A DNA stretch of 64,000 nucleotides from Pyrinomonadaceae bacterium (lineage in GTDB: Bacteria; Acidobacteriota; Blastocatellia; Pyrinomonadales; Pyrinomonadaceae): NCBI GenBank assembly GCA_035257465.1, contig DATEXA010000239.1:3809-67808 (forward strand). The letters are read 5' to 3'. This document shows positions 8,232 through 30,487 of the stretch, in pieces. The notes beneath the pieces were generated by a model. It was not told the DNA's origin. It ran no database searches and was given only the letters and a program-made list of their open reading frames with translations. The number at the start of each line of letters is the position of its first letter. Position 1 is the first letter of the stretch. The position numbers were made by a program, and so were the translations under genes.

Positions 8232-8798
8232 ATGAACACTAAACCACTTTTCATTCCCGTGATTCTCGGTACGGTGCGGAAAGGTCGAGCCAGCGAGAAC
8301 GTCGCGAAGTTCGTCTTCAGCCAAGTGCAAAAACGCGAAGACGTCGAAACCTTATTGATTGATATTCGGGATCTGAAGTTTCCAACTGATGATGCAGGCG
8401 AGCAGATCAAAGACCCCGCATTTGCAAAACTATGCGAGCGCGCTGACGGTTTTGTGATCGTTACACCGGAATATAACCACGGTTATCCTGGACTGCTGAA
8501 ACACGTGCTCGATACAAATCTGAAGGAGTACATTCACAAAGCAGTGGGTGTGTGCGGCGTCTCGGCTGGAAGTTTTGGTGGTGCGCGGGTTATCGAGGCG
8601 CTTCTGCCGGTCCTGCGAGAACTCGGTCTGGTCACAATCTTTTGGGACGGCAATTTCTTTCATGCGCAAAGGCTGTTCGATGCGAATGGGAAAATTCTCG
8701 ACGAGCGGAGGCACATCAAGCATATTGACAAGTTCCTCAACGAATTAATCTGGATGAGCAAAGTACTGCGTTACGGACGTGAAAACGTCTCGATCTAA
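8232..8798 (+). CDS. NADPH-dependent FMN reductase family protein
   Basis: 'LFIPVILGTVRKGRASENVAKFV' and 'VIVTPEYNHGYPGLLKHVLD' are typical of the FMN_red family. The start is placed at the internal Met of track ORF 8166-8798. Confidence 0.85.
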   Translation: MNTKPLFIPVILGTVRKGRASENVAKFVFSQVQKREDVETLLIDIRDLKFPTDDAGEQIKDPAFAKLCERADGFVIVTPEYNHGYPGLLKHVLDTNLKEYIHKAVGVCGVSAGSFGGARVIEALLPVLRELGLVTIFWDGNFFHAQRLFDANGKILDERRHIKHIDKFLNELIWMSKVLRYGRENVSI

Positions 8799-18956: not shown

Positions 18957-19226
18957 TTATTTGTGAGCCTCGATCTCTTCGATGAAGCATTTAGCCATCA
19001 GACCCTTTGAAACGAGTCGCGTCCCTTTCTCAAACATTTTCGTCAACAACTGCTTTCCCTTATTGTCGATGAAGCTAACAGCCGTTAAATCAACTGAGAC
19101 TGCCGCCTTGCTGGCTGAGGCCGCACTCCAACAGCGTTCCAGTTCTCCTACTGCTTCGCCGGCGAGTTTACCTTCAAGAAAGAGTCGAGTAATCGCGCGC
19201 TCATCATGTGTGGTAATTCTGATCAT
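18957..19226 (-). CDS. Single-domain STAS protein (paralog of 23060-23329)
   Basis: 'MIRITTH...LFLEGKLAGEAVGEL...VSVDLTAVSFIDNKGKQLL'. The track ORF extends to 19271, and I prefer the internal Met at 19226. It is divergent from the sigma-54 activator. Confidence 0.75.
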   Translation of the reverse strand: MIRITTHDERAITRLFLEGKLAGEAVGELERCWSAASASKAAVSVDLTAVSFIDNKGKQLLTKMFEKGTRLVSKGLMAKCFIEEIEAHK

Positions 19227-19520
19227 AGGTTTCGTCCGAACAATGACTAGCAACTTGTTAGCCGCAATCAATCCGAGGGCAAAATGTCGCTAAATATTCT
19301 GATTGCAAAGAAGAACTCCGGCGTTGAAAAGAGTGACAATCAAACATCTGACCGTATTTCACCAGATGACGGATACCCGTCATTGGGGAAGGAACCAGAG
19401 ACGCGTTTTGCTCGTAACGACGTAGTCAAGTATTCTTTGATCAAACGAGGTCACCAGGGTTTTCGTGTTGAGTCTTTTGAAAGGACTGGCCCCATGCCTG
19501 AGGTTTCGGGGGAGAAAGTA

Positions 19521-21578
19521 ATGAATGCCCACACTGCTTTCGCAGTTGACACAGAGTTACAGACGCAAAAGTTTCTAACGCTGCTTGAACTTTCCAAAGC
19601 GATCGCCTCTCATCGCGATTTATCAGGACTATTCCACGATTTAACTTGCCGTCTGCGAAATCTCTTTGCCTTTCGCGATCTGGCGGTCATGCTGCACGAC
19701 GATAAGAAAAATGTGATGCGGTCCTACATCATGGAAGGATGTGACGGGGCATGGCTCCCTCAAGATCCGAATGAAGTTCCAATAGAGGGTTCCATCAGCG
19801 GTCAGGTTTGGCAGACCCAGCAGCCGCTTGTAATCGATGATTTGGACAAAGACTATCGATTCCCTTCAGCCAGCATCCTGCGCGACCGCGGCGTGAAATC
19901 GGTCTGTTGCCTGTCGCTAAGCACTGTGCATCAAAGACTTGGCACGTTGAATTTATTGAGTGAGGAAGTCGGTGCATATGACCATTTTGATCTCGGGTTT
20001 GCGCAATTAGTCGCCGGACAGATTGCTGTAGCGGTTGAAGCACAGTTTCATCAGCAGCAGTTGGCGCGGGAACGAGATCGCTCAAAGCTATTGTTGGAAG
20101 TTAACAACACTCTGGTTTCAAATCTAAATCTGCGAGAGTTGTTGTCGGGCATCTCGCACAGTCTCGCCCCCGTAATGCCACACGAAGCAGCTGCCTTGAC
20201 ACTGTACGACAAATCGCTCAATCAACTTCGCGTCGCCGCCTTTGATTTTCCCGAGCACGACGGTAACTGCGTTACCGGCAAGATCATTCCCTTTGAAAAC
20301 AATCCTATCGGTGAAGCGTTTACAACCAGAAAAACTGTTTTGATCGATTATGGCAATCCACAGGATCCGCAAATAGCTTGCGGAGGAAAGATGGCCTCCG
20401 GTTGTGCTGCTCCATTGATCTTTCGCGATCGAGTGCTCGGAGTAATCGCTATTAAGAGTAGTCGACCGCACGCGTTCTCCGAAGACGACGCCGAATTGTT
20501 CGGTCAGGTTGCTAATCAAGTGGCAATTGCAGTCGAGAATGCCCTCGCCTACAACGAGATCGAGACACTCAAGAACAAGCTGGAGAAAGAGAAGCTCTAC
20601 CTCGAAGAAGAGATTCGTACTGAGTACAACTTTGAAGAGATCGTAGGCAGCAGCCGCGTACTCCGGCAGGCCTTGCAACAAGTTGAGACAGTTGCTTCGA
20701 CTGACTCAACGGTCCTGATCTCTGGCGAAACGGGAACCGGCAAAGAGTTAATCGCGCGTGCGATCCATAATCTGAGCGAACGTCGCGAGCGTACGCTGGT
20801 TAAAGTTAACTGCGCCGCAATTCCAACCGGACTCCTGGAAAGCGAGTTGTTTGGTCATGAGAAGGGTGCATTTACAGGAGCGATCGATCGACGCATAGGT
20901 CGATTCGAGCTTGCACACCAGGGAACAATCTTCCTGGACGAGGTCGAGGACATTCCTCTCGAATTGCAATCCAAGCTGTTGCGCGTGCTTCAGGAGCATG
21001 AGTTTGAACGTCTTGGCAGTTCGCGCACGTTGCGTGTTGACGTTCGTGTTGTAGCGGCCACAAATGCCGACTTAGCTCAACTAGTCGAAGAGAAAAAGTT
21101 CCGCAGCGATCTCTATTACCGTCTAAACGTTTTTCCAGTCAATGTGCCGTCATTACGTGAGCGACCTGAGGACATTCCACTTCTGGTCCACTTCTTCGCC
21201 AACAAGTTTGCGCAGCAGATGAAGCGACACATCGAGAGCGTTCCGAAAGATGTGATGGAGGCTCTGGTGAAATACCACTGGCCCGGCAACATTCGCGAAC
21301 TGGAAAACCTTGTGGAGCGAGCCGTGATCCTTTCGCGTGGTTCAATCCTCGAAGTACCGTTGAGTGAATTGAAGCAATCGAAGGCGTCGAACCACGCTAA
21401 TGGCTCGATAAGCCTGGAAGCTGTTGAGCGCGATCACATTTTGCGAATACTTGGTGAGTCCGGCTGGGTAATTGGAGGTCCAAATGGAGCAGCCGCTCGT
21501 CTTGGTCTAAACAGAACAACACTTAACCACCGGATGCGTAAATTGGGAATTTTCAGGCCACAACCCGCGTCAGTGTAG
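19521..21578 (+). CDS. Sigma-54-dependent transcriptional activator (GAF-GAF-AAA+-Fis HTH; FhlA/NifA-like architecture)
   Basis: Walker A 'GETGTGKE', the sigma-54 contact loop '[10 protein letters not shown]', '[11 protein letters not shown]' and a C-terminal HTH '[21 protein letters not shown]'. The start is placed at the ATG preceded by GGGGGAG, although the ORF is open from 19284. Confidence 0.9.
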
Positions 21579-22162
21579 AGTCATTTGCTAAAATACCTCG
21601 GTCTACCCACACCCGTCGGATCTCTCAGTCGAAATTAACCTACCAGAGACCTGCGACCTCAAGGAGCGCTCTTTGCTCATCGCTCTAAATTGTTTCGCGA
21701 CGGAAATGCGGTAATTTCGCGCTACCTCTCGCGTTAGTCAGTAAGGGCTCAGAGCCGCGTAAATTGATCAAATAAAGCCTCACATTTGAGACGAACGTAA
21801 CTGCGCCGAGTAACTGATAACTCCGTACGGTGCTGGATTACGGGAACTTCGTGAACGCGGAAATGGTGAAAGCCTTCAACGCTTCCATCGAATATCGCCA
21901 GCGATTCGGTCCATGATGCACGTCTAAAATTCCCAAAAACAATCCGAGGCAAAATAAGCTTCGTAGGGAATAAAACCTAACCGGGTTCGGTATTAACAGT
22001 AGATCGCGTAATAACAAACAAGAGGGTTCCTGCAAACGCGGTAAAAGCTCACAAGTTCGAGAATGCAGCGTTACGGCACCGCAACGTCAACCAATCCCCC
22101 GACGTGGCGTCCTTCTGATTATGAGTAGCTCTTACAAATCACGGATACGCGGAGGTTCTAAG

Positions 22163-22453
22163 TTGAGTTGTCAACGAGCACGGGAACTCATGACCAGCCT
22201 TGTTGATGGCGCGCTCGATGGATTTCACGTTTCAGAAATCGAGCAACACCTGGATCGATGCCAGGACTGTAAGCTTGAGTACATCAGTCGATTAACCATG
22301 CGTTCATCATTTAAAGACAAATCGCTTTATCATTGCGCGCCCCCTAGTCTGCGGAAGCGCATTCGTTCGTCCTTGCAAAAAGAGGCGCGAGTCGACGTGA
22401 CTTCTCGCATGACTTTGCGCTCCTTATCCAACAGGCACAATGAAGGATCATAG
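22163..22453 (+). CDS. Soluble zinc-binding anti-sigma factor (zf-HC2, RsrA-like ZAS)
   Basis: GGAGG Shine-Dalgarno 7 nt before a TTG. The ZAS spacing C-x25-H-x3-C-x2-C is seen in 'SCQRARELMTSLVDGALDGFHVSEIEQHLDRCQDC'. The protein is about 97 aa with no hydrophobic segment. The ORF is open from 22121. Confidence 0.75.
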   Translation: MSCQRARELMTSLVDGALDGFHVSEIEQHLDRCQDCKLEYISRLTMRSSFKDKSLYHCAPPSLRKRIRSSLQKEARVDVTSRMTLRSLSNRHNEGS

Positions 22454-22996
22454 CGCTCCCACACACAACTCTTCCGAAGTTTCTTTATCCCGATAATTCA
22501 CAAGAATCTGTTTTAGTCGTTCACGAGCACGAGCCAACCGTGACATCACAGTACCCATAGGAATCTTCACCACGTCCGCGATCTGTTTATAAGATAATTC
22601 TTCAAATTCTCTCAGTACGATCACCTCGCGAAACTCGGCGGGCAACTTTTCTAACGCACTCCTGAGCATTTGTTTGTCCGCTTCTTTGATTAGCAGCATC
22701 TCGGGATCCAAATCATCTGATGTCTGCATACATGTCTCATCATCGAAATCGCCTTCCGATTCCATTAATCGATTTTGCCGAATCCAGTTGTGATAGGTGT
22801 TGCGGACAATCGCCAGCAACCATGGCCGAGCGTCGCCTCCTTGAAAGGCAGCGAAGTGCCGCAAAGCGCGTAGGTAAGCTTCCTGTACGACATCTTCAGC
22901 ATCTTTATCGTTTCGAGTGAGCCACCGAGCCAGATTGTATGCCGCATCGAGATGCGGCAAAGCGGCTTCCTCAAAACCCTGGATAATGGTGGTCAT
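22448..22996 (-). CDS. ECF-type sigma-70 family RNA polymerase sigma factor
   Basis: Region 2 'AEDVVQEAYLRALRHFAAFQG...WLLAIVRNTYHNWIR' and region 4 'LPAEFREVIVLREFEELSYKQIADVVKIPMGTVMSRLARARERL'. The start could be as far upstream as 23035. Confidence 0.9.
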   Translation of the reverse strand: MTTIIQGFEEAALPHLDAAYNLARWLTRNDKDAEDVVQEAYLRALRHFAAFQGGDARPWLLAIVRNTYHNWIRQNRLMESEGDFDDETCMQTSDDLDPEMLLIKEADKQMLRSALEKLPAEFREVIVLREFEELSYKQIADVVKIPMGTVMSRLARARERLKQILVNYRDKETSEELCVGAL

Positions 22997-23059
22997 TACC
23001 GTGCTCCATTGTCGGGCTCTAAGCCCGGCATACATCGGTCAAGGTTCGATTTAGTAGTG

Positions 23060-23329
23060 CTATGCATCCTTGCACCTGCTGATCTGCTCCACTACAAACA
23101 GCGGAACATTCACATGACGAACTCCACGGTCTATCAGACTCTTTATTAGTGCGATCCCTTCGCAGTCGATGAAACCAATGTTTTTCAAATCAACATCGAG
23201 ACTCAAGCCTTCTTCCAGTGCTGACTCAGCGGTCTCTCGCAGTAACTCAACCCATTGGCCCGTAACCCGTCCATCCAGTTGTAAAGTAACTTGATGTCCT
23301 ACCAAAACGACTTTCGTGATCTTCAACAT
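23060..23329 (-). CDS. Single-domain STAS protein immediately upstream of the ECF sigma gene
   Basis: 'TLQLDGRVTGQWVELL...LDVDLKNIGFIDCEGIALIKSL'. The STAS core has Cys in place of the phosphorylatable Ser. Confidence 0.8.
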   Translation of the reverse strand: MLKITKVVLVGHQVTLQLDGRVTGQWVELLRETAESALEEGLSLDVDLKNIGFIDCEGIALIKSLIDRGVRHVNVPLFVVEQISRCKDA

Positions 23330-23418
23330 TCCGGTGTCTCTCTTGGAAATTTTGTCCCATGTCGCCCACTACCAAACCGTACCGATCGCTGGGCAAAATA
23401 TCGTTTCTAATTAGGGTG

Positions 23419-23497
23419 GAGGAGCAAGACCTGTGCGTGTGCGTCGCTCGTGGGAGCAAGCGATACACTCGTGTTCTTTAGTTCGGTCTTGCTCCTC
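23419..23497. other. Long-range perfect 13-bp inverted repeat
   Basis: gaggagcaagacc (23419-23431) and ggtcttgctcctc (23485-23497), lying between the secreted-protein gene and the STAS gene. Confidence 0.4.
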
Positions 23498-23588
23498 GCG
23501 TTCGCCAGGCGAGTTGCAGCGTTGAAACTCCTGGTCGCTTTCATCTCACCTTTCGACCGCAGGACCTCCCTTTCAAACCCCTGGTTTG

Positions 23589-24446
23589 TTAGTTTTGCGG
23601 AATCCCCTGGGGCTCACCATAGATAAAGTCATCCATCATGACGATGTCGTTCTTCTCATCATCATTGGGCCCGGGAACATCACCTGCAGTGATACGCACA
23701 CTAGCGATCCTTGCGTCACCGTAGGTGATACCGAAGAAAGAAAATCCCGCATCGCCTGGCGACGGTGGCACGAAACTGCTGTACAGCAGCTGACCGTCTG
23801 CGCCGAAAAACTCAACCAATGTACTGGAGCCGCGGTTACCATTTTTTTGCCCTGGCCCACTGCCATCCGGTTGATCGACGTCACAGAAAATCGCTCCGAA
23901 GCCTTTGACTGTTGCTGCGGTATTTCCCATTGAACCAGGCACGAAAAACAAAACATTAGTGATATTGCTACCTACCGGGGTGAAAAGGCGCTTGGCACTG
24001 AAGGCCTTGAAAATGGTGCCGTAGGTTTCGTTGTTGAAGAGCCCAACCAGTCCGTTTTGCGCGCCACCCGAAGGAGGTGCCTGGGCAAGTCCGAGTCCTG
24101 GTGTGGTGGTCTGGTTACCTCGGCTGTCTAAGAAGTTGTTGAATGGTGTTACGGGCGGTGTGGTCGCGTCAGGTCCACCAACTCCATCCCAATTGATTTC
24201 TCGACGACCATCTGAAAGTGGCCCTTTGTTGTTGCCGTTGTTTTGATCTCCCAGTTCATGGCGGAACCTGTCAACTGAACCTTGAATCGAAGCGGCGTCT
24301 GGCCCTGCAGCCTGAAACACAGTAGGTGGAACAAAATCTCTGCCAGTGTTGTCTTGCGCATGAACCGACTGATTTAGTCTGCCGGGCACGACAATCGACA
24401 TTAGGCCGATGACGGCAGCAAATATTAAGAACACATACTTCTTCAT
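23589..24446 (-). CDS. Secreted hypothetical protein
   Basis: AAAGGA Shine-Dalgarno and the signal peptide 'MKKYVFLIFAAVIGLMSIVVPG...VHAQ'. The mature part is Gly/Asn/Pro-rich and contains 'GRREINWDG'. No family was recognised. Confidence 0.75.
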   Translation of the reverse strand: MKKYVFLIFAAVIGLMSIVVPGRLNQSVHAQDNTGRDFVPPTVFQAAGPDAASIQGSVDRFRHELGDQNNGNNKGPLSDGRREINWDGVGGPDATTPPVTPFNNFLDSRGNQTTTPGLGLAQAPPSGGAQNGLVGLFNNETYGTIFKAFSAKRLFTPVGSNITNVLFFVPGSMGNTAATVKGFGAIFCDVDQPDGSGPGQKNGNRGSSTLVEFFGADGQLLYSSFVPPSPGDAGFSFFGITYGDARIASVRITAGDVPGPNDDEKNDIVMMDDFIYGEPQGIPQN

Positions 24447-24637
24447 ACTTGAATATCCTTTCAATCTAACTGGTAATGAAACATCCCCGCATGAGCGCGT
24501 TACATCGGAAGCGGCACGTTTCGAATGAAGCGGTCTTACGCCGCTTGTAATTGGCCCTCGTGGTCCAGCGACAAGACATTTGAGATCTCTGGCATTCAGT
24601 TGTGGTCGCCATTAAATGTGTCGCGAGACCATCGCAG

Positions 24638-24653
24638 TGCAGATTGCGTGCCG
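24638..24653 (-). promoter_or_regulatory. Candidate sigma-54 (-24/-12) promoter
   Basis: The minus strand reads CGGCACGCAATCTGCA against the consensus TGGCACG-N4-TTGCA. GG and GC have the correct 10-nt spacing. It lies about 190 nt upstream of the ATG at 24446 and just downstream of the activator gene. Confidence 0.5.
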
Positions 24654-24800
24654 TGGACATACACAAGAATTCGATTTCGGCTCTCCGCTAAATTGTTTGA
24701 GAATCTGGTAACTCGAGGTGTAAAACGAGGTCAGAAGGACTGATAGGAGAACCAATCCCGTGGAATCGCGGATATTAGGAGATAGCCTTTGGTAGGCGAA

Positions 24801-27299
24801 CTACGATATGTGGTGGGCGGAGCGACTAATACCCAGCTTAGCCATTCTGTGTCGCAGCGTATTCGGATGGATACCAAGAGTCTTGGCAGCGCCGTTTGCG
24901 CCTTCAACCACCCCGCGAGTTTGCTGCAGCGCTGCACAAATATGATCTCGCTCGACCTCTTCCAAAGTCTTAAGCGCAACAGATAGTCCAGGAGTCAGGG
25001 CAGGTTCAGACTCCGACGTCTTGTCGAAATGGGCCTCCGAAACCGGCACGCTGGTGAGATCGGTCTCTAACTCGAGAATTGAACCCTGAGAAAGTATCAA
25101 TGCTCGCTCTATAACATTTTGCAACTCCCGGACGTTTCCGGGCCAGGAGTAGCTTGTGAGTCTTTCACTGGCCACGGCGGATATGCCCTCCATCTTCCTC
25201 CCCAGGTTTCGCGCGGATTTAGAAAGGAAGAACATCGCTAACTGAGGAATATCTGAACGTCGCTCGCGCAGGGGAGGAACTTCAAGTGGAAAGACATTCA
25301 ATCGATAATAGAGATCCGAGCGGAACGTGCCTTCGCTAATAGATTCCTTAAGGTTTCGATTTGTGGCGCAGATGATTCGCACGTCTACGCGCACCGAACG
25401 ACTACTGCCCACTGGCTCGAACTCCCGCTCCTGAAGAACGCGCAACAATTTGACCTGAGTGTCCAGGGGCAACTCACCTACCTCATCTAGGAAGATTGTG
25501 CCGCCGTCCGCAAGTTCGAACCGGCCAATCCGTCGTTCGAACGCCCCGGTAAAAGCACCTTTCACATGGCCGAATAATTCGCTCTCAACCAAACCGGCGG
25601 AAATGGCGCTACAGTTCACCTTTACTAACGGCCGATCCTTCCGGGCGCTGCGATCGTGAATAGCCCTTGCAATTAACTCTTTTCCTGTTCCCGTCTCTCC
25701 GTAGATGAGCACGCTGGAGTTTGTTGGCGCGACTTGATCGACTCGTTTTAGGAGCGCAAGAAGGGCGTCACTGTTACCAACAATTTCTTCGAAGTTATGT
25801 ACAGTGCGGATCTCCTCTTGAAGATAAACATTTTCCTTCTCAAGTCTTCCCTTCAGCGCCGCGATCTGCTCATAAGATTTCATGTTTGCGATCGCTAGCG
25901 AGACCTGGTTAGCGACTTCCCTCAACAACTCAGCATCAGATTCCGTGTACCTGTTCTTTGCTTCACTCCAAACGGTGAAAGTACCTATGCTGGTTCCCAT
26001 CGCCACGAGTGGTACAACGCAATATGATTGAATTCCCTCTTCTACGAGCCGCCTTTCGCCAGGCGACTCCTGTTCTCGTTGCAGATCACCTCGCGTGACC
26101 GTCTTTTGATGTTCCAGTACCCATGCCGAAATGCGGGTCTCCTCAAGATCGTATTCTTTCCCAAGCCGGAAAAACTCCGATTCGCCCGTACCATTCATCG
26201 ATAGAAGTTTCAGCGTCTTAGACTCGGGCTGGTAAAGAAGAAAGGCGGCTCGGTCAAAGGGAACCACTCGTTGAATAGCTTCATAGGCAGATGCGAAGAG
26301 CGCATCCTGCGCGAGGTTGTTAATAATCGCGTTGTTGATCTCGAGTAGGGTACGTTTCCGCTGCTCGCTTTTCCGAAGCGCCTCTTCCGCCTTTCGTCGC
26401 TCAGTTACGTCAACGAAAGTAACGACAGCGCCAACAGTTTTGCCCTCCCTGACAAGTGGGTGAGACCAATATTCGACGGGGAAACTACTCCCATCTTTTT
26501 TCCAAAAAATATCATCATCAATATGAACGCCACGGTTTTCCTGGAAGCCAACAAAAATAGGACACTCTTCGATAGGAAATGCGGTGCCATCTTTTCGTGT
26601 ATGGTGATCTAACGAATGCATGTTCTGCCCGAGCAACTCCTGGGCATCGTCATAACCAAGTAACTGAACTGCAGCCGGATTACAAAAGAGACAGGTGCCG
26701 TGGGAATCACATCCGAAGATTCCTTCAGCAGCGGAGTTAAGAATCAACCGAGCTCGCTCTTCGCTCAACTGCAGGGCTTCTTCTGCTCTTTTCCGTTCGG
26801 TGATGTCTTCTGTCAGTGCCAATAAGAATGGCTGCGTACTCTCGGTACTGTGCACCACAGATACGTTATTCCTTACCCAAACAAAACTGCCATCTTTGTG
26901 ACGACATTGTTTCTCAATTTGAAACTGATCTCGTTTTCCTTCCACCAGTTCAGTAACCAAAGCCCAATTGACTTCACGATAATCCTCATGAGTAATCTCG
27001 AGGAATGAAAGCTCTCGAAATTCACTCTCACTGTAACCGAGCATTTTTTGGTAGGTGGAATTTGTCGAGAGAACGCGGCCACTAAGATCGGCAAGCGCTA
27101 CGCCTATAGCAGAATTCTCAAAGACTGATCGCCACCGCAAGGCTTCAGTCTTTTCGCGCTGTGTGACACCTTCGGTAGGAGATTGTGCTTCCGGTTTTAA
27201 GCTGATTGGTCCAACGTCCCGCATACAACTCGTGGAATACACTCTGAATGTGGACGGAGTTTGTTTCACGTAGAGCAGGAAGTCAAGAGACCAAGCCAT
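24801..27299 (-). CDS. Sigma-54-dependent transcriptional activator (PAS-PAS-GAF-AAA+-Fis HTH)
   Basis: Two PAS/PAC units ('LTEDITERKRAEEAL', 'FVDVTERRKAEEAL') and a GAF domain. Other motifs are Walker A 'GETGTGKE', 'GHVKGAFTGA', '[11 protein letters not shown]' and the HTH 'AAKTLGIHPNTLRHRMAKLGI'. Confidence 0.92.
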   Translation of the reverse strand: MAWSLDFLLYVKQTPSTFRVYSTSCMRDVGPISLKPEAQSPTEGVTQREKTEALRWRSVFENSAIGVALADLSGRVLSTNSTYQKMLGYSESEFRELSFLEITHEDYREVNWALVTELVEGKRDQFQIEKQCRHKDGSFVWVRNNVSVVHSTESTQPFLLALTEDITERKRAEEALQLSEERARLILNSAAEGIFGCDSHGTCLFCNPAAVQLLGYDDAQELLGQNMHSLDHHTRKDGTAFPIEECPIFVGFQENRGVHIDDDIFWKKDGSSFPVEYWSHPLVREGKTVGAVVTFVDVTERRKAEEALRKSEQRKRTLLEINNAIINNLAQDALFASAYEAIQRVVPFDRAAFLLYQPESKTLKLLSMNGTGESEFFRLGKEYDLEETRISAWVLEHQKTVTRGDLQREQESPGERRLVEEGIQSYCVVPLVAMGTSIGTFTVWSEAKNRYTESDAELLREVANQVSLAIANMKSYEQIAALKGRLEKENVYLQEEIRTVHNFEEIVGNSDALLALLKRVDQVAPTNSSVLIYGETGTGKELIARAIHDRSARKDRPLVKVNCSAISAGLVESELFGHVKGAFTGAFERRIGRFELADGGTIFLDEVGELPLDTQVKLLRVLQEREFEPVGSSRSVRVDVRIICATNRNLKESISEGTFRSDLYYRLNVFPLEVPPLRERRSDIPQLAMFFLSKSARNLGRKMEGISAVASERLTSYSWPGNVRELQNVIERALILSQGSILELETDLTSVPVSEAHFDKTSESEPALTPGLSVALKTLEEVERDHICAALQQTRGVVEGANGAAKTLGIHPNTLRHRMAKLGISRSAHHIS

Positions 27300-27640: not shown

Positions 27641-28741
27641 TCACATACCGCCGACATTGAGAATCTTGTCCTTGTAGATAACTGCGAAGAGTTTCTGGGC
27701 CAGGTCGTAATCGATCGCTTTGAGCAAGGTGTACTGTTGCAACGCCAATGCTCGCTCACCACGCCGGATGTAAATGATGGCCAGGTTGCTGTGAGCTTCA
27801 GCGAAATCCGGTTTGAGCAAGAGTGCTTGATTGTAAGACAGGATGGCCTGCTTATATCGACCTGCCTTGCCGAAAACATAGCCGAGATTGTAATGCGCTT
27901 GGGCCATACCTGGCTTTACGCTGATCGCTCGTTGCAGGAATTCAATGGCCCGGTCGAATTCCCCGAGTGAGCAGTAGATCAAACCCATATTGTTTAGGAT
28001 TGCTGGAGTGTCTGTTGTCAGCCTTAATGCCTGGTCATAGGCAGTGATCGCGTCTTTAGGCCGGCCTGCATCGGCGTAGGCGGATCCCAAATTTTGATAG
28101 ACATCAGGAGACTCGGGCTCGAGACGGTGAGCCTGCTCAAGAGATGCGATTGCGTCTGTAAGCTGGCCCAACTTGTAATAAGCAACTCCTAAATTATTAT
28201 GAGCCTCCCCCGAATCTGGTTTGATTCGAATGGCTTCCTTCAATGAGTTGACGGCCTCCTGATCACGGCCCAGCATGGAATAGGTAAATCCGACCTCACA
28301 AAGCGAATCAGTACGCTCCGGTTGGAGTTGAAGTGCACGCGTAAAACACTCAAGTGCCTCTGCGTACCGTTCAGTCTTATTGTAGGAAACACCGAGATGA
28401 TGGTGCGCGTCTGTGAAGTTCGGGTTAATAAGTAACGTTTTCTTAAAGGCTTCGATCGCAAGATCGTAATTCTTCTCCATCTCGTAAACACAACCGAGAT
28501 TGTAGTGGGCCACGTAGAGTTCAGGTTGAAGGGCAATCGCCCTCTTAAGCAAATCAATCGCTTCCGCGTACCGATGCCCTGTAGCCGAAGCAACGGCGTT
28601 ATTGGTAAGTGAAGCAGCCTCATCGGCAGATCGATCCGGCATCTCTTTTGTCGCAGCGACTGCAAAGCCACCCGACAACAAGACACAAAGTAACGTCGTG
28701 GCGACCAAAACCAATTTCTTGCGTCTGAACATCAATCTCAC
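27641..28741 (-). CDS. TPR-repeat protein with signal peptide
   Basis: About nine tandem 34-aa TPR units (recurring 'A..Y..AL.L.P..A.AH.NLG..Y') and an N-terminal 'LVLVATTLLCVLLSGGFAVA'. Confidence 0.9.
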   Translation of the reverse strand: MRLMFRRKKLVLVATTLLCVLLSGGFAVAATKEMPDRSADEAASLTNNAVASATGHRYAEAIDLLKRAIALQPELYVAHYNLGCVYEMEKNYDLAIEAFKKTLLINPNFTDAHHHLGVSYNKTERYAEALECFTRALQLQPERTDSLCEVGFTYSMLGRDQEAVNSLKEAIRIKPDSGEAHNNLGVAYYKLGQLTDAIASLEQAHRLEPESPDVYQNLGSAYADAGRPKDAITAYDQALRLTTDTPAILNNMGLIYCSLGEFDRAIEFLQRAISVKPGMAQAHYNLGYVFGKAGRYKQAILSYNQALLLKPDFAEAHSNLAIIYIRRGERALALQQYTLLKAIDYDLAQKLFAVIYKDKILNVGGM

Positions 28742-28974: not shown

Positions 28975-29577
28975 TCAGGCCCATTGATGAGCCCCATGAT
29001 GGAGCAGAGCCGGCGAAGTAGGAAGTGCGCTTTGTGTTGTCTTTCGATTGGTGAGCAGCTTACGAAGCTTCATGCGAGCTTTGTGCAATTGCGACTTTGA
29101 GGTTCCAACCGAACAACCAAGCAGCTGACCAATCTGTTCATGCTCATAGCCCGCTACATCGTGAAGGATGAAGACAGCTCGATAACCTGGCGCCAACTGG
29201 CTAATTGCCTCGTCCAGCGAAATGCGATCGATTAGGGCCATCCTGCTCGGGTTCTCTGTTCCCGCCACAATCCGAAGTGGCAGAGTGCCATCTTCCGTCG
29301 TTTGCTCACTCTTTACGTTAGGCTTACGAAAATGCATCAACACTTGATTGACCGCCAGTCTATGGAGCCACGTGCTAAACGAAGAGTCACCGCGAAACGT
29401 GTCAATCTTGCGAAAAAGTTGGATGAAGACCTCTTGGGCCAGATCCTCAGCTTGCGTCGCGTTTCTGATCATTCTCAGGCACAGAGCGTAAATACGGTGA
29501 TGATAGCGACGGTAGACCTTTTCGAACGCCTCCATGTCACCTGTGGCCGCAAGCTGTGCATCTGCGTCTGCCGTCAT
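28975..29577 (-). CDS. ECF-type sigma-70 family RNA polymerase sigma factor
   Basis: '[38 protein letters not shown]' (region 2) and '[45 protein letters not shown]' (region 4). The start is at the internal Met, although the ORF is open to 29712. Confidence 0.9.
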
Positions 29578-29674
29578 TTCTGTACCCTTTCGGACTAACC
29601 TTGAGCCCTCATCAAGCTCGACCGAAGCATCCGTACTGCAAATGCGACGGCCGAGTTTGCTGGCCAACCGTTCA

Positions 29675-30133
29675 TTACAGAACGCCAACAATGACCACGG
29701 TCTCGACCGCAAGGTTTTCAGCTATCTTTCCTGTTGACGATTTTCCATGGAGATTGCTTTGGATATCACGCTCGCTCTGTGACAGATAAAACTGTCGCCC
29801 CGTTGTTTCACCCGCGGGCCAAACCTGGAAAAGGAAGTATTGATCTCCATAACGATGGAAAACCAGCGTTCCCTTGTCCTTGGCTTGCAACGTTTGAACT
29901 GAAGATGAAAAAGGAATCGCTCTCGAACTACCATCCACATCAAGAATCGAGAGGACCGTATCATCAGAATCTCGTCTTGCTCGACCAATCGAGTATTTGC
30001 CCGACGAAAGTTTCTTGTCGGCTACGATGAAATCGAACGGAATGTTTGCCCTGATCTTATTCGCGAGAGATTGGCCCTGCGCTGACGTTACAGCAGTTAC
30101 AAACACGATCGCGCTCAGGAGACTAATCTTCAT
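29675..30133 (-). CDS. Secreted hypothetical protein
   Basis: Signal peptide '[20 protein letters not shown]', followed by '[19 protein letters not shown]'. No family was recognised. Confidence 0.7.
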
Positions 30134-30487
30134 TAACCCACCCGCAAATTGTATCTTCATACTCTCTCACTCTCATTTGTAATTAGAGGCTCAATGCCTC
30201 GCGATGTAGATACCGCTTAAGCCGTCTTTTTATTCCAGGGAATAATTGATCCTCTTTGCCGAGGGCTTGGAAAGAGTTTCGGAACTTTGAAGTGGACCAG
30301 AAAGGAGTTGTCGATGCAGAAAACGCTCGGTGAAGGAAGTACTTAGGTCTTTTTATGCAGCAGCTGTCAAGTCAAAACCAAGTGCCGGATCAAAGCGAAA
30401 GGGCCAATCGCTACGAATCCCGTAGTTGCTACGAAGAGAACTCGGAGATCTGAACAGAGAAAGTTCTGAAATTCTAATTTGCAATCA

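Follow-up and report, generated by a model that had tools for sequence, protein, structure and literature searches.

The described systems that come closest to the locus considered here are the soluble zinc anti-sigma factors of Actinobacteria, RshA and RsrA, which belong with the extracytoplasmic function (ECF) sigma factors SigH and SigR (ECF12), and the membrane-bound zinc-binding anti-sigma (ZAS) factors such as RslA and RsiW, which are co-transcribed with their ECF sigma factor. The ECF sigma factor HrpL of Pseudomonas syringae is transcribed via sigma-54 under the control of HrpR/HrpS. The sigmaH consensus has been given as GGAAT-N18-19-GTT, and a separate sigmaH-type promoter precedes rshA in 63 Corynebacterium species (PMC10012870). 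Soluble ZAS regulators, whose mechanism is not known, accompany the ECF sigma factors of groups ECF270 and ECF271 and have been reported, among others, from an Acidobacteria bacterium in a source that also lists transcriptional control for ECF32 (HrpL) (PMC8999054). In mycobacteria, the function of the STAS protein RsfA (Rv1365c), which antagonizes anti-sigma-F, depends on the redox state of Cys73/Cys109 (PMC10950880, PMC7693655). The locus described here lies in a stretch of 64,000 nt (the window; contig DATEXA010000239.1 of assembly GCA_035257465.1) from a Pyrinomonadaceae bacterium, and the names of the STAS homologues likewise place the organism in the Pyrinomonadaceae, Acidobacteriota. 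It comprises a short ZAS gene that converges with the gene for an ECF sigma factor (SIG1), which in turn follows genes for a sigma-54 activator (EBP1), a secreted protein (X) and a minimal STAS protein.

The locus is read here, at a probability of roughly 60%, as a two-tier cascade leading from sigma-54 to an ECF sigma factor and provided with an orphaned, truncated and probably feedback-wired zinc anti-sigma domain. This reading is built on gene identities, synteny, promoter conservation, the structure of a relic and purifying selection, and predicts from these the binding partners, the sigma factor that reads the ZAS promoter and co-transcription. In the first tier, as the conserved anatomy suggests, EBP1 would sense a cytoplasmic signal and fire a -24/-12 promoter, yielding a single transcript that carries X, the cysteine-type STAS protein and SIG1. 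In the second tier the soluble ZAS would damp SIG1, and the ZAS promoter would most likely be read by SIG1 (or by a neighboring sigma factor of a third type, SIG3), resulting in negative feedback. With no external sensor, the only roles left to ZAS would be those of a buffer or threshold in the cytoplasm or of a thiol/zinc switch, and the conserved partner of STAS would be the sigma-54 unit rather than ZAS. The locus is an interesting variant of known regulation and not a new type of switch.

The comparison covers 62 related loci, which were gathered by exact-protein look-ups and by a scan with the STAS alignment, one genome per species. The scan provided 40 genome loci, nearly all of them labeled as metagenome-assembled genomes (MAGs) of Pyrinomonadaceae, Blastocatellia or Acidobacteriota, and genes were mapped across loci with phmmer; the relatives are all uncultured MAGs or metagenome contigs. 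The constant core consists of EBP1 (a PAS-GAF sigma-54 activator), X (about 285 aa) and STAS, in this order, and the gene after STAS encodes a SIG1-type sigma factor in 30 of the 40 genome loci and a SIG3-type factor in six, no sigma gene being present in the other four.

The short anti-sigma gene and the convergent sigma gene

The ZAS gene (22163-22453, + strand) encodes a soluble class-I anti-sigma domain of 96 aa with the zinc motif C3-x25-H29-x3-C33-x2-C36, recognized by Pfam zf-HC2 (PF13490; E 8e-8, 32.6 bits vs a cutoff of 22.2). The initial annotation, made from the sequence of the window by itself, had described this ligand spacing and the lack of a hydrophobic segment, and both descriptions are borne out: the highest 19-residue Kyte-Doolittle mean is 0.55, compared with at least 1.87 in full-length relatives, so that no transmembrane (TM) helix is predicted. 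The open reading frame (ORF) listed for the gene runs from an ATG at 22121 to 22453 on the + strand; the true start is the TTG at 22163, at which the alignments of homologues begin exactly and which is preceded at 8 nt by a GGAGG Shine-Dalgarno sequence kept in all relatives. In translations of the extended ORFs this ribosome-binding site had appeared as a spurious conserved "RGGS". Among 46 homologues H29, C33 and C36 are invariant and C3 is more than 90% conserved. The AlphaFold model contains helices at residues 3-14, 20-32, 34-51 and 61-89, with pLDDT above 94 for residues 1-45, and the best 16 Foldseek matches are all anti-sigma domains (RsiW, RslA, DdvA, MucA, RskA and ChrR at the top), every one of them at a non-significant E >0.3; a PDB sequence search with ZAS provided no meaningful match.

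On the opposite strand, SIG1 (22448-22996, - strand) is an ECF sigma factor of 182 aa, as had been proposed, with a GGAG Shine-Dalgarno sequence before its ATG at 22996. It is composed of sigma-2 and sigma-4 domains only (Sigma70_r2, E 1.5e-13; Sigma70_r4_2, E 6.9e-16) and scores 104.8 bits on TIGR02937 (cutoff 42.9). Among curated models PRK12533 fits it best, with a score of 219.9 bits that lies under the cutoff of 248, and its nearest solved structures are M. tuberculosis SigH and SigE. The two genes overlap tail to tail by 6 nt, in agreement with the initial description: the hexamer TCATAG (22448-22453) contains both the ZAS stop codon TAG (22451-22453) and, as its complement, the SIG1 stop codon TGA (22448-22450).

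The identical locus occurs in six independent assemblies, and SIG1 and ZAS are convergent in every related locus that has both genes; because of these two observations the arrangement of ZAS, SIG1 and STAS is neither due to chance nor an assembly artefact. A comparison of orientation among relatives, which had been put forward as a check, thus shows that the convergent layout is conserved; the 6-nt overlap itself is not, the distance between the 3' ends ranging from a gap of 187 nt to an overlap of 191 nt (+187 to -191 nt). A scan of positions 21500-24900 for sigma-70 promoters and terminators found none above chance, with no terminator between the converging genes, and no Rfam family was matched between 18000 and 31000.

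The 33 distinct ZAS sequences comprise six full-length forms, 23 short forms of 75-141 aa that have no TM helix and retain an intact C-x24/25-H-x3-C-x2-C motif, and four decayed forms (L038, L045, L046 and L048) in which the N-terminus with the zinc site has been lost. The ligands are thus kept in 23 of the 27 short or decayed forms. In the four loci with decayed forms the ECF-type promoter is still found upstream, and what is left of the ZAS ORF overlaps the sigma gene in antisense by 191 nt. Calculated over the first 80 ZAS codons in 20 pairs, dN/dS was 0.17-0.56 in 19, and the nearly identical pair formed by the window and L009 gave 0.73 at a dS of 0.04. The corresponding ranges are 0.15-0.28 for the anti-sigma domain of full-length ZAS, 0.07-0.27 for SIG1 and 0.04-0.34 for STAS; the values of ZAS are similar to those of the full-length anti-sigma domain and above those of SIG1 and, in most pairs, of STAS. 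The short ZAS is under purifying selection, and conservation of the ORF, also listed initially as a point to be verified, is evident from the zinc motif in the 23 short forms. From these patterns the gene is judged to have a function in most lineages, whereas a few can do without it. As regards annotation, several gene callers miss this ORF, a genuine anti-sigma gene in convergent overlap with its neighbor.

The initial comparison with RsrA was correct in part. As in the SigH-RshA and SigR-RsrA pairs, the anti-sigma domain is soluble and its ligands are spaced C-x25-H-x3-C-x2-C, SIG1 has M. tuberculosis SigH as its closest solved relative, and an ECF-type promoter of the GGAAT-N18-GT type stands before the anti-sigma gene as its own, as described for rshA in Corynebacterium (PMC10012870). 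In contrast to these pairs, the organism belongs to the Acidobacteriota, with no mycothiol context, and ZAS stays under the cutoff of the RsrA/RshA model TIGR03988 (40.4 vs 62.5 bits; 44.3 bits for a membrane-bound relative). Its gene converges with that of the presumed sigma partner instead of being co-transcribed 3' of a co-directional sigma gene, and its solubility is secondary, derived by truncation of a membrane anti-sigma factor. Since membrane-bound relatives show the same spacing, the ligands do not indicate a redox sensor, and "RsrA-like" holds for the architecture of ZAS only.

Origin of the short form and its candidate sigma partner

The orientation of ZAS is accounted for by comparing the window with about 45 loci from related Pyrinomonadaceae. 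In six loci (type-B loci L029, L032, L037, L039 and L054, plus L052) an intact operon occupies the position of ZAS, on the strand opposite to STAS-SIG1. It consists of a second ECF sigma gene, SIG2 (175-192 aa), and, downstream and translationally coupled to it, a ZAS gene of 256-285 aa whose product combines a TM helix (WRWLTVGASLAFMLLIGVVVW) with some 130 aa of periplasmic domain. The short ZAS aligns with the cytoplasmic domain of this membrane protein and ends just where the TM helix begins, and the Shine-Dalgarno sequence and start codon are common to short-ZAS and intact-operon loci.

The upstream DNA extends this correspondence. An ECF-type promoter, GGGAATAAAA-N14-GTATT (GGAAT-N18-GTA), is located at 21966-21994 (+ strand), about 165 nt 5' of the ZAS start; it is the sole exact match in the window, where three matches with up to two mismatches were found vs 0.16 expected. 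The motif is present on the ZAS strand 5' of ZAS in essentially all short-ZAS loci, and the intact operons carry the same -35 box and spacing before SIG2, with GTCTT as the -10 element. Between promoter and start codon, positions 22124-22162 (+ strand) hold what appears to be a stub left from the 3' terminus of a deleted SIG2-lineage sigma gene, together with the ZAS Shine-Dalgarno sequence GGAGG: the DNA AGCTCTTACAAATCA..CGCGGAGGTTCTAAG-TTG has its counterpart in the type-B loci where SIG2 ends (..LALTNQ..) and the coupled ZAS begins. Longer stubs were found in relatives, namely 26 codons in L010 (E 8e-8), 32 codons in L030 and an internal piece in L049 (E 4e-7).

The short ZAS is thus the leftover of an ordinary convergent operon made of promoter, SIG2 and membrane ZAS, and it was not inverted. 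To judge from the alignments, the lineage of the window has lost the SIG2 gene (down to a stub of about 40 nt), the TM helix of ZAS and the periplasmic domain. A local inversion that moved the anti-sigma gene away from its sigma gene, as considered in the initial annotation, has next to no chance of being the explanation; it draws on the unusual convergent orientation alone and is contradicted by the promoter, Shine-Dalgarno sequence, start codon and sigma stub, which are collinear with the intact SIG2-ZAS operons in the same orientation, and by the same orientation in every related locus with both genes. The stubs differ between the window, L010, L030 and L049, which suggests a repeated or a gradual loss of the sigma gene.

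Compared with membrane ZAS proteins co-transcribed with an ECF sigma factor (RslA, RsiW, and the type-B SIG2-ZAS pairs of this family), the ZAS of the window has the homologous domain, promoter, ribosome-binding site and start codon, and differs from them in having no TM helix, periplasmic domain or upstream sigma gene. Because the TM and periplasmic parts have been lost, it cannot relay an extracytoplasmic signal or come under control by intramembrane proteolysis.

An origin by loss of the partner sigma factor and the sensor domain would also suit a decaying relic devoid of function, in which case SIG1 would be controlled only through sigma-54- and EBP1-dependent transcription and the overlap would be incidental. 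The zinc site has been lost in four lineages, both the C-terminal tails and the length of the overlap are free to vary, the ORF is skipped by several gene callers and only two homologues were found in a word-indexed protein search. Set against this, dN/dS is well below 1 in 19 of 20 pairs, like in the full-length forms, 23 distinct short forms, spread over many species, retain the zinc ligands, Shine-Dalgarno sequence, start codon and promoter, and the stubs differ as if the sigma gene had been lost repeatedly while the anti-sigma domain was spared. A functionless ZAS is accordingly considered improbable.

The retained domain most likely binds SIG1, as predicted from sequence relationships. 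SIG1 and SIG2 both have PRK12533 as their best model; they are 70-78% identical to each other within type-B loci, and the SIG1 of the window is 59-65% identical to both. Cross-binding of ZAS to SIG1 is plausible because the two sigma factors share a curated model and 59-78% identity, and SIG1 is the sole relative within the window. If SIG1 also reads the ZAS promoter, the circuit would be one of negative feedback, as the analogy with rshA in Corynebacterium suggests.

Several points weigh against the cascade with an orphaned, feedback-wired ZAS. ZAS was originally the partner of SIG2 and not of SIG1. In the lineage of L010-L013 and L018, which has a short ZAS, a SIG2-lineage sigma gene of 199 aa, which together with the ORF after it spans about 800-1950 (L010 coordinates), lies 5 kb away in L010 and divergent from EBP1; it could be the displaced partner of ZAS. 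A neighbor-joining tree groups the type-B SIG1 with SIG2 and not with the type-A SIG1, which suggests that gene conversion or a later duplication took place in the type-B clade, and because of this grouping more than one order of duplication and loss would fit. The -10 element is GTATT or GTCTT and not the GTT of sigmaH promoters, and ZAS may be transcribed by SIG3, given the similar promoter before the SIG3-type operon (30209-30237). The stub in the window covers only about 12 codons and is not significant by itself (tblastn E 2.2), loss of the zinc site in four lineages means that ZAS is dispensable in some, and the model as a whole rests on sequences from uncultured MAGs and metagenome contigs.

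Some of these points would equally fit a functional ZAS directed at another sigma factor, either a SIG2-lineage protein encoded elsewhere in the genome or the SIG3-type factor (28975-29712). In intact operons ZAS is translationally coupled to SIG2 rather than to SIG1, a SIG2-lineage gene persists 5 kb away in L010, and a similar promoter stands before the SIG3 operon. Yet the window contains no SIG2-like gene, SIG1 adjoins every short ZAS and shares with SIG2 its curated model and 59-65% identity, and SIG3 is only a distant relative (about 41-49 bits). Another target is for these reasons regarded as doubtful, and SIG1 is retained as the preferred partner.

The locus documents, at the level of sequence, a route by which a membrane signal-transducing anti-sigma factor becomes a soluble orphan domain, its own sigma factor and sensor lost and its autoregulatory promoter kept. 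The orphan presumably serves the neighboring paralogous sigma factor, and the differing stubs are consistent with repeated occurrence within one family. This bears on the origin of soluble ZAS regulators such as those of ECF270 and ECF271, which the locus resembles in combining an ECF sigma factor with a soluble ZAS-type regulator and from which it differs in that the nearest curated model of SIG1 is PRK12533.

Three ECF sigma lineages cluster around the locus across the family. The SIG3-type operon of the window is preceded by a second ECF-type promoter, TGGAATAAAA-N14-GTATC (30209-30237, - strand), and comprises an ORF of 161 aa with no assigned family (29675-30160, - strand) and the sigma gene (28975-29712, - strand; 245 aa, HTH_16 match); a TPR protein gene (27641-28732) and then EBP1 follow. 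The 199-aa SIG2-lineage gene of the L010 lineage is followed by an ORF of 157 aa with no Pfam match.

The sigma-54 unit and the cysteine-type STAS protein

EBP1 (24801-27299, - strand) is an enhancer-binding protein with a PAS-PAS-GAF-AAA+(Sigma54_activat)-HTH architecture, according to the Pfam domains recorded for the identical protein, and is conserved 5' of X-STAS wherever the contig extends that far. The putative sigma-54 promoter (-24/-12; CGGCACGCAATCTGCA, 24638-24653, - strand) is supported by comparison: of 39 distinct regions between EBP1 and X or STAS, 36 contain CGGCAC-N5-CTGCA, usually once and in L047 twice, and where X is missing the motif stands directly before STAS, as in L044. 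The support is comparative since the motif search in the window alone gave 34 matches vs 32.8 expected, which is not above chance. No ECF-type motif was found before X or STAS. Because of the conserved -24/-12 motif and the lack of an ECF-type one, SIG1 appears to be made on the command of the sigma-54 activator.

The closest parallel to this tier is HrpR/HrpS-sigma-54-HrpL, in which an ECF sigma gene is likewise served by a sigma-54 promoter (a predicted one here) and an adjacent enhancer-binding protein. The present locus differs from the Pseudomonas syringae system in the PAS and GAF sensor domains of its activator, in the genes for X and STAS within the operon, in the additional anti-sigma domain and in the lack of a type III secretion context. 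The combination of sigma-54 activator, secreted protein, Cys-STAS and ECF sigma factor defines a conserved uncharacterized unit in abundant soil Acidobacteria.

Gene X (23589-24446, - strand) opens the operon. Its product, a conserved secreted protein, has 285 aa and a signal-peptide-like N-terminus, is rich in Gly, Asn and Pro, and gave no match in Pfam, NCBIfam and PDB sequence searches; the gene is found between EBP1 and STAS in most related loci. Between X and STAS a stable RNA hairpin is predicted (23419-23497, - strand; minimum free energy -40.9 kcal/mol, z = -5.35), with 13-bp GC-rich arms (23419-23431 and 23485-23497), an inner hairpin and no U-tract. Analogous hairpins of different sequence follow the stop codon of X in most relatives. 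The element matches no Rfam family and would possibly set the ratio of X to STAS.

The STAS gene (23060-23329, - strand) lies 5' of SIG1 on the same strand, as first described, and ends 63 nt before the SIG1 ATG at 22996 (24 nt if the ATG at 23035 is used). Its product of 89 aa is below the curated cutoffs of PF01740, PF13466 and TIGR00377 (19.6 vs 22.6, 21.5 vs 29.2 and 20.2 vs 53.45 bits, respectively), the STAS_2 match reaching E 2.6e-4. The AlphaFold model (pLDDT 86.8) adopts a beta-beta-alpha-beta-alpha-beta-alpha fold, for which Foldseek places RsbV (6m36_B; TM 0.78, E 1.4e-6) and SpoIIAA (1thn_B; E 5e-6) first, then RsfB and MlaB. An MlaB-type role, after the name given to the protein in some sources, was rejected, as the locus has no Mla or ABC transporter genes and RsbV and SpoIIAA resemble the fold more closely. 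Cys56 (FIDCEG) aligns with the phosphorylatable Ser of RsbV (MDSTG), and both Cys56 and Cys86 are kept in all 45 distinct orthologues. On sequence grounds the protein, having no phosphorylatable residue at the canonical site, is assigned to a kinase-independent STAS type. No GHKL kinase, in agreement with the initial annotation, and no PP2C phosphatase was detected among the called genes with Pfam hits within 10 kb on either side, and the gene calls inspected for related loci contained neither of the two.

RsfA, the nearest precedent, is similar in being a single-domain STAS protein that uses cysteines in place of Ser phosphorylation; here the candidate residues are the invariant Cys56 and Cys86, which may lie too far apart in the fold for a disulfide. 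It differs in its partner, an RsbW/UsfX-type anti-sigma factor of a group-3 sigma factor, none of which is encoded here.

The initial annotation had also raised the option that STAS, ZAS and the ECF sigma factor form a partner switch. In such a kinase-free device the Cys-STAS protein would be an anti-anti-sigma factor that binds ZAS, perhaps through a thiol/disulfide switch, and releases SIG1. STAS stands directly 5' of SIG1 in 30 of the 40 genome loci, its nearest structures are RsbV and SpoIIAA, ahead of MlaB, no kinase gene is nearby, and of the two invariant cysteines one occupies the regulatory Ser position, in parallel with Cys73/Cys109 of RsfA (PMC10950880). Comparison of the loci offers no support: STAS and its cysteines are conserved to the same degree in loci with a membrane-bound, a soluble, a decayed or no ZAS, and STAS is kept where SIG1 is missing or replaced by another sigma factor; some loci have a further gene inserted between STAS and SIG1; and a paralogue, STAS2, stands beside a sigma-54 activator with no sigma or ZAS gene nearby. 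STAS proteins go unmentioned in an ECF sigma classification and in a review of ECF regulation, and literature on STAS combined with ECF sigma factors or with sigma-54 activators yielded nothing relevant. A partner switch is therefore judged unlikely.

We know of no precedent for a STAS protein that binds a class-I anti-sigma domain. A broader version, in which the Cys mini-STAS proteins of Pyrinomonadaceae are kinase-independent thiol switches expressed from sigma-54 promoters and STAS1, the STAS protein of the SIG1 operon, binds either ZAS (membrane-bound or soluble) or SIG1 directly, is similarly unlikely; if true, it would link the release of an ECF sigma factor to a sigma-54 activator and to a redox or ligand signal from the cytoplasm, an ECF partner switch with neither a GHKL kinase nor a PhyR-type mimic. 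The independence of STAS conservation from the state of ZAS and the sigma gene, together with the pairing of STAS2, instead links the mini-STAS proteins, as far as gene neighborhoods indicate, to sigma-54 activator units and not to ZAS. The locus thereby flags a class of STAS proteins that is non-phosphorylatable at the canonical site and associated with sigma-54 activators.

STAS2 (18957-19226, - strand) is 31% identical to STAS, has Asn in place of the phospho-Ser and forms a divergent pair with the gene for a GAF-GAF sigma-54 activator (19284-21578, + strand). The pair recurs in L059-L062 beside SDR and RND efflux genes. A weak -24/-12 candidate seen by eye (CGGCTAAC-N3-TTGCT), about 22 nt before the STAS2 ATG, is not established. 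Variation also affects the region between STAS and the sigma gene: some relatives (L029, L032, L037, L051 and L055) have a second, unrelated secreted-protein gene (218-268 aa) at this position, and in L048 an enlarged STAS-SIG1 spacer (about 8480-8620) is filled by tandem units of about 25 nt (GGCCAACGCCTTCGGCGTAACAAGAC).

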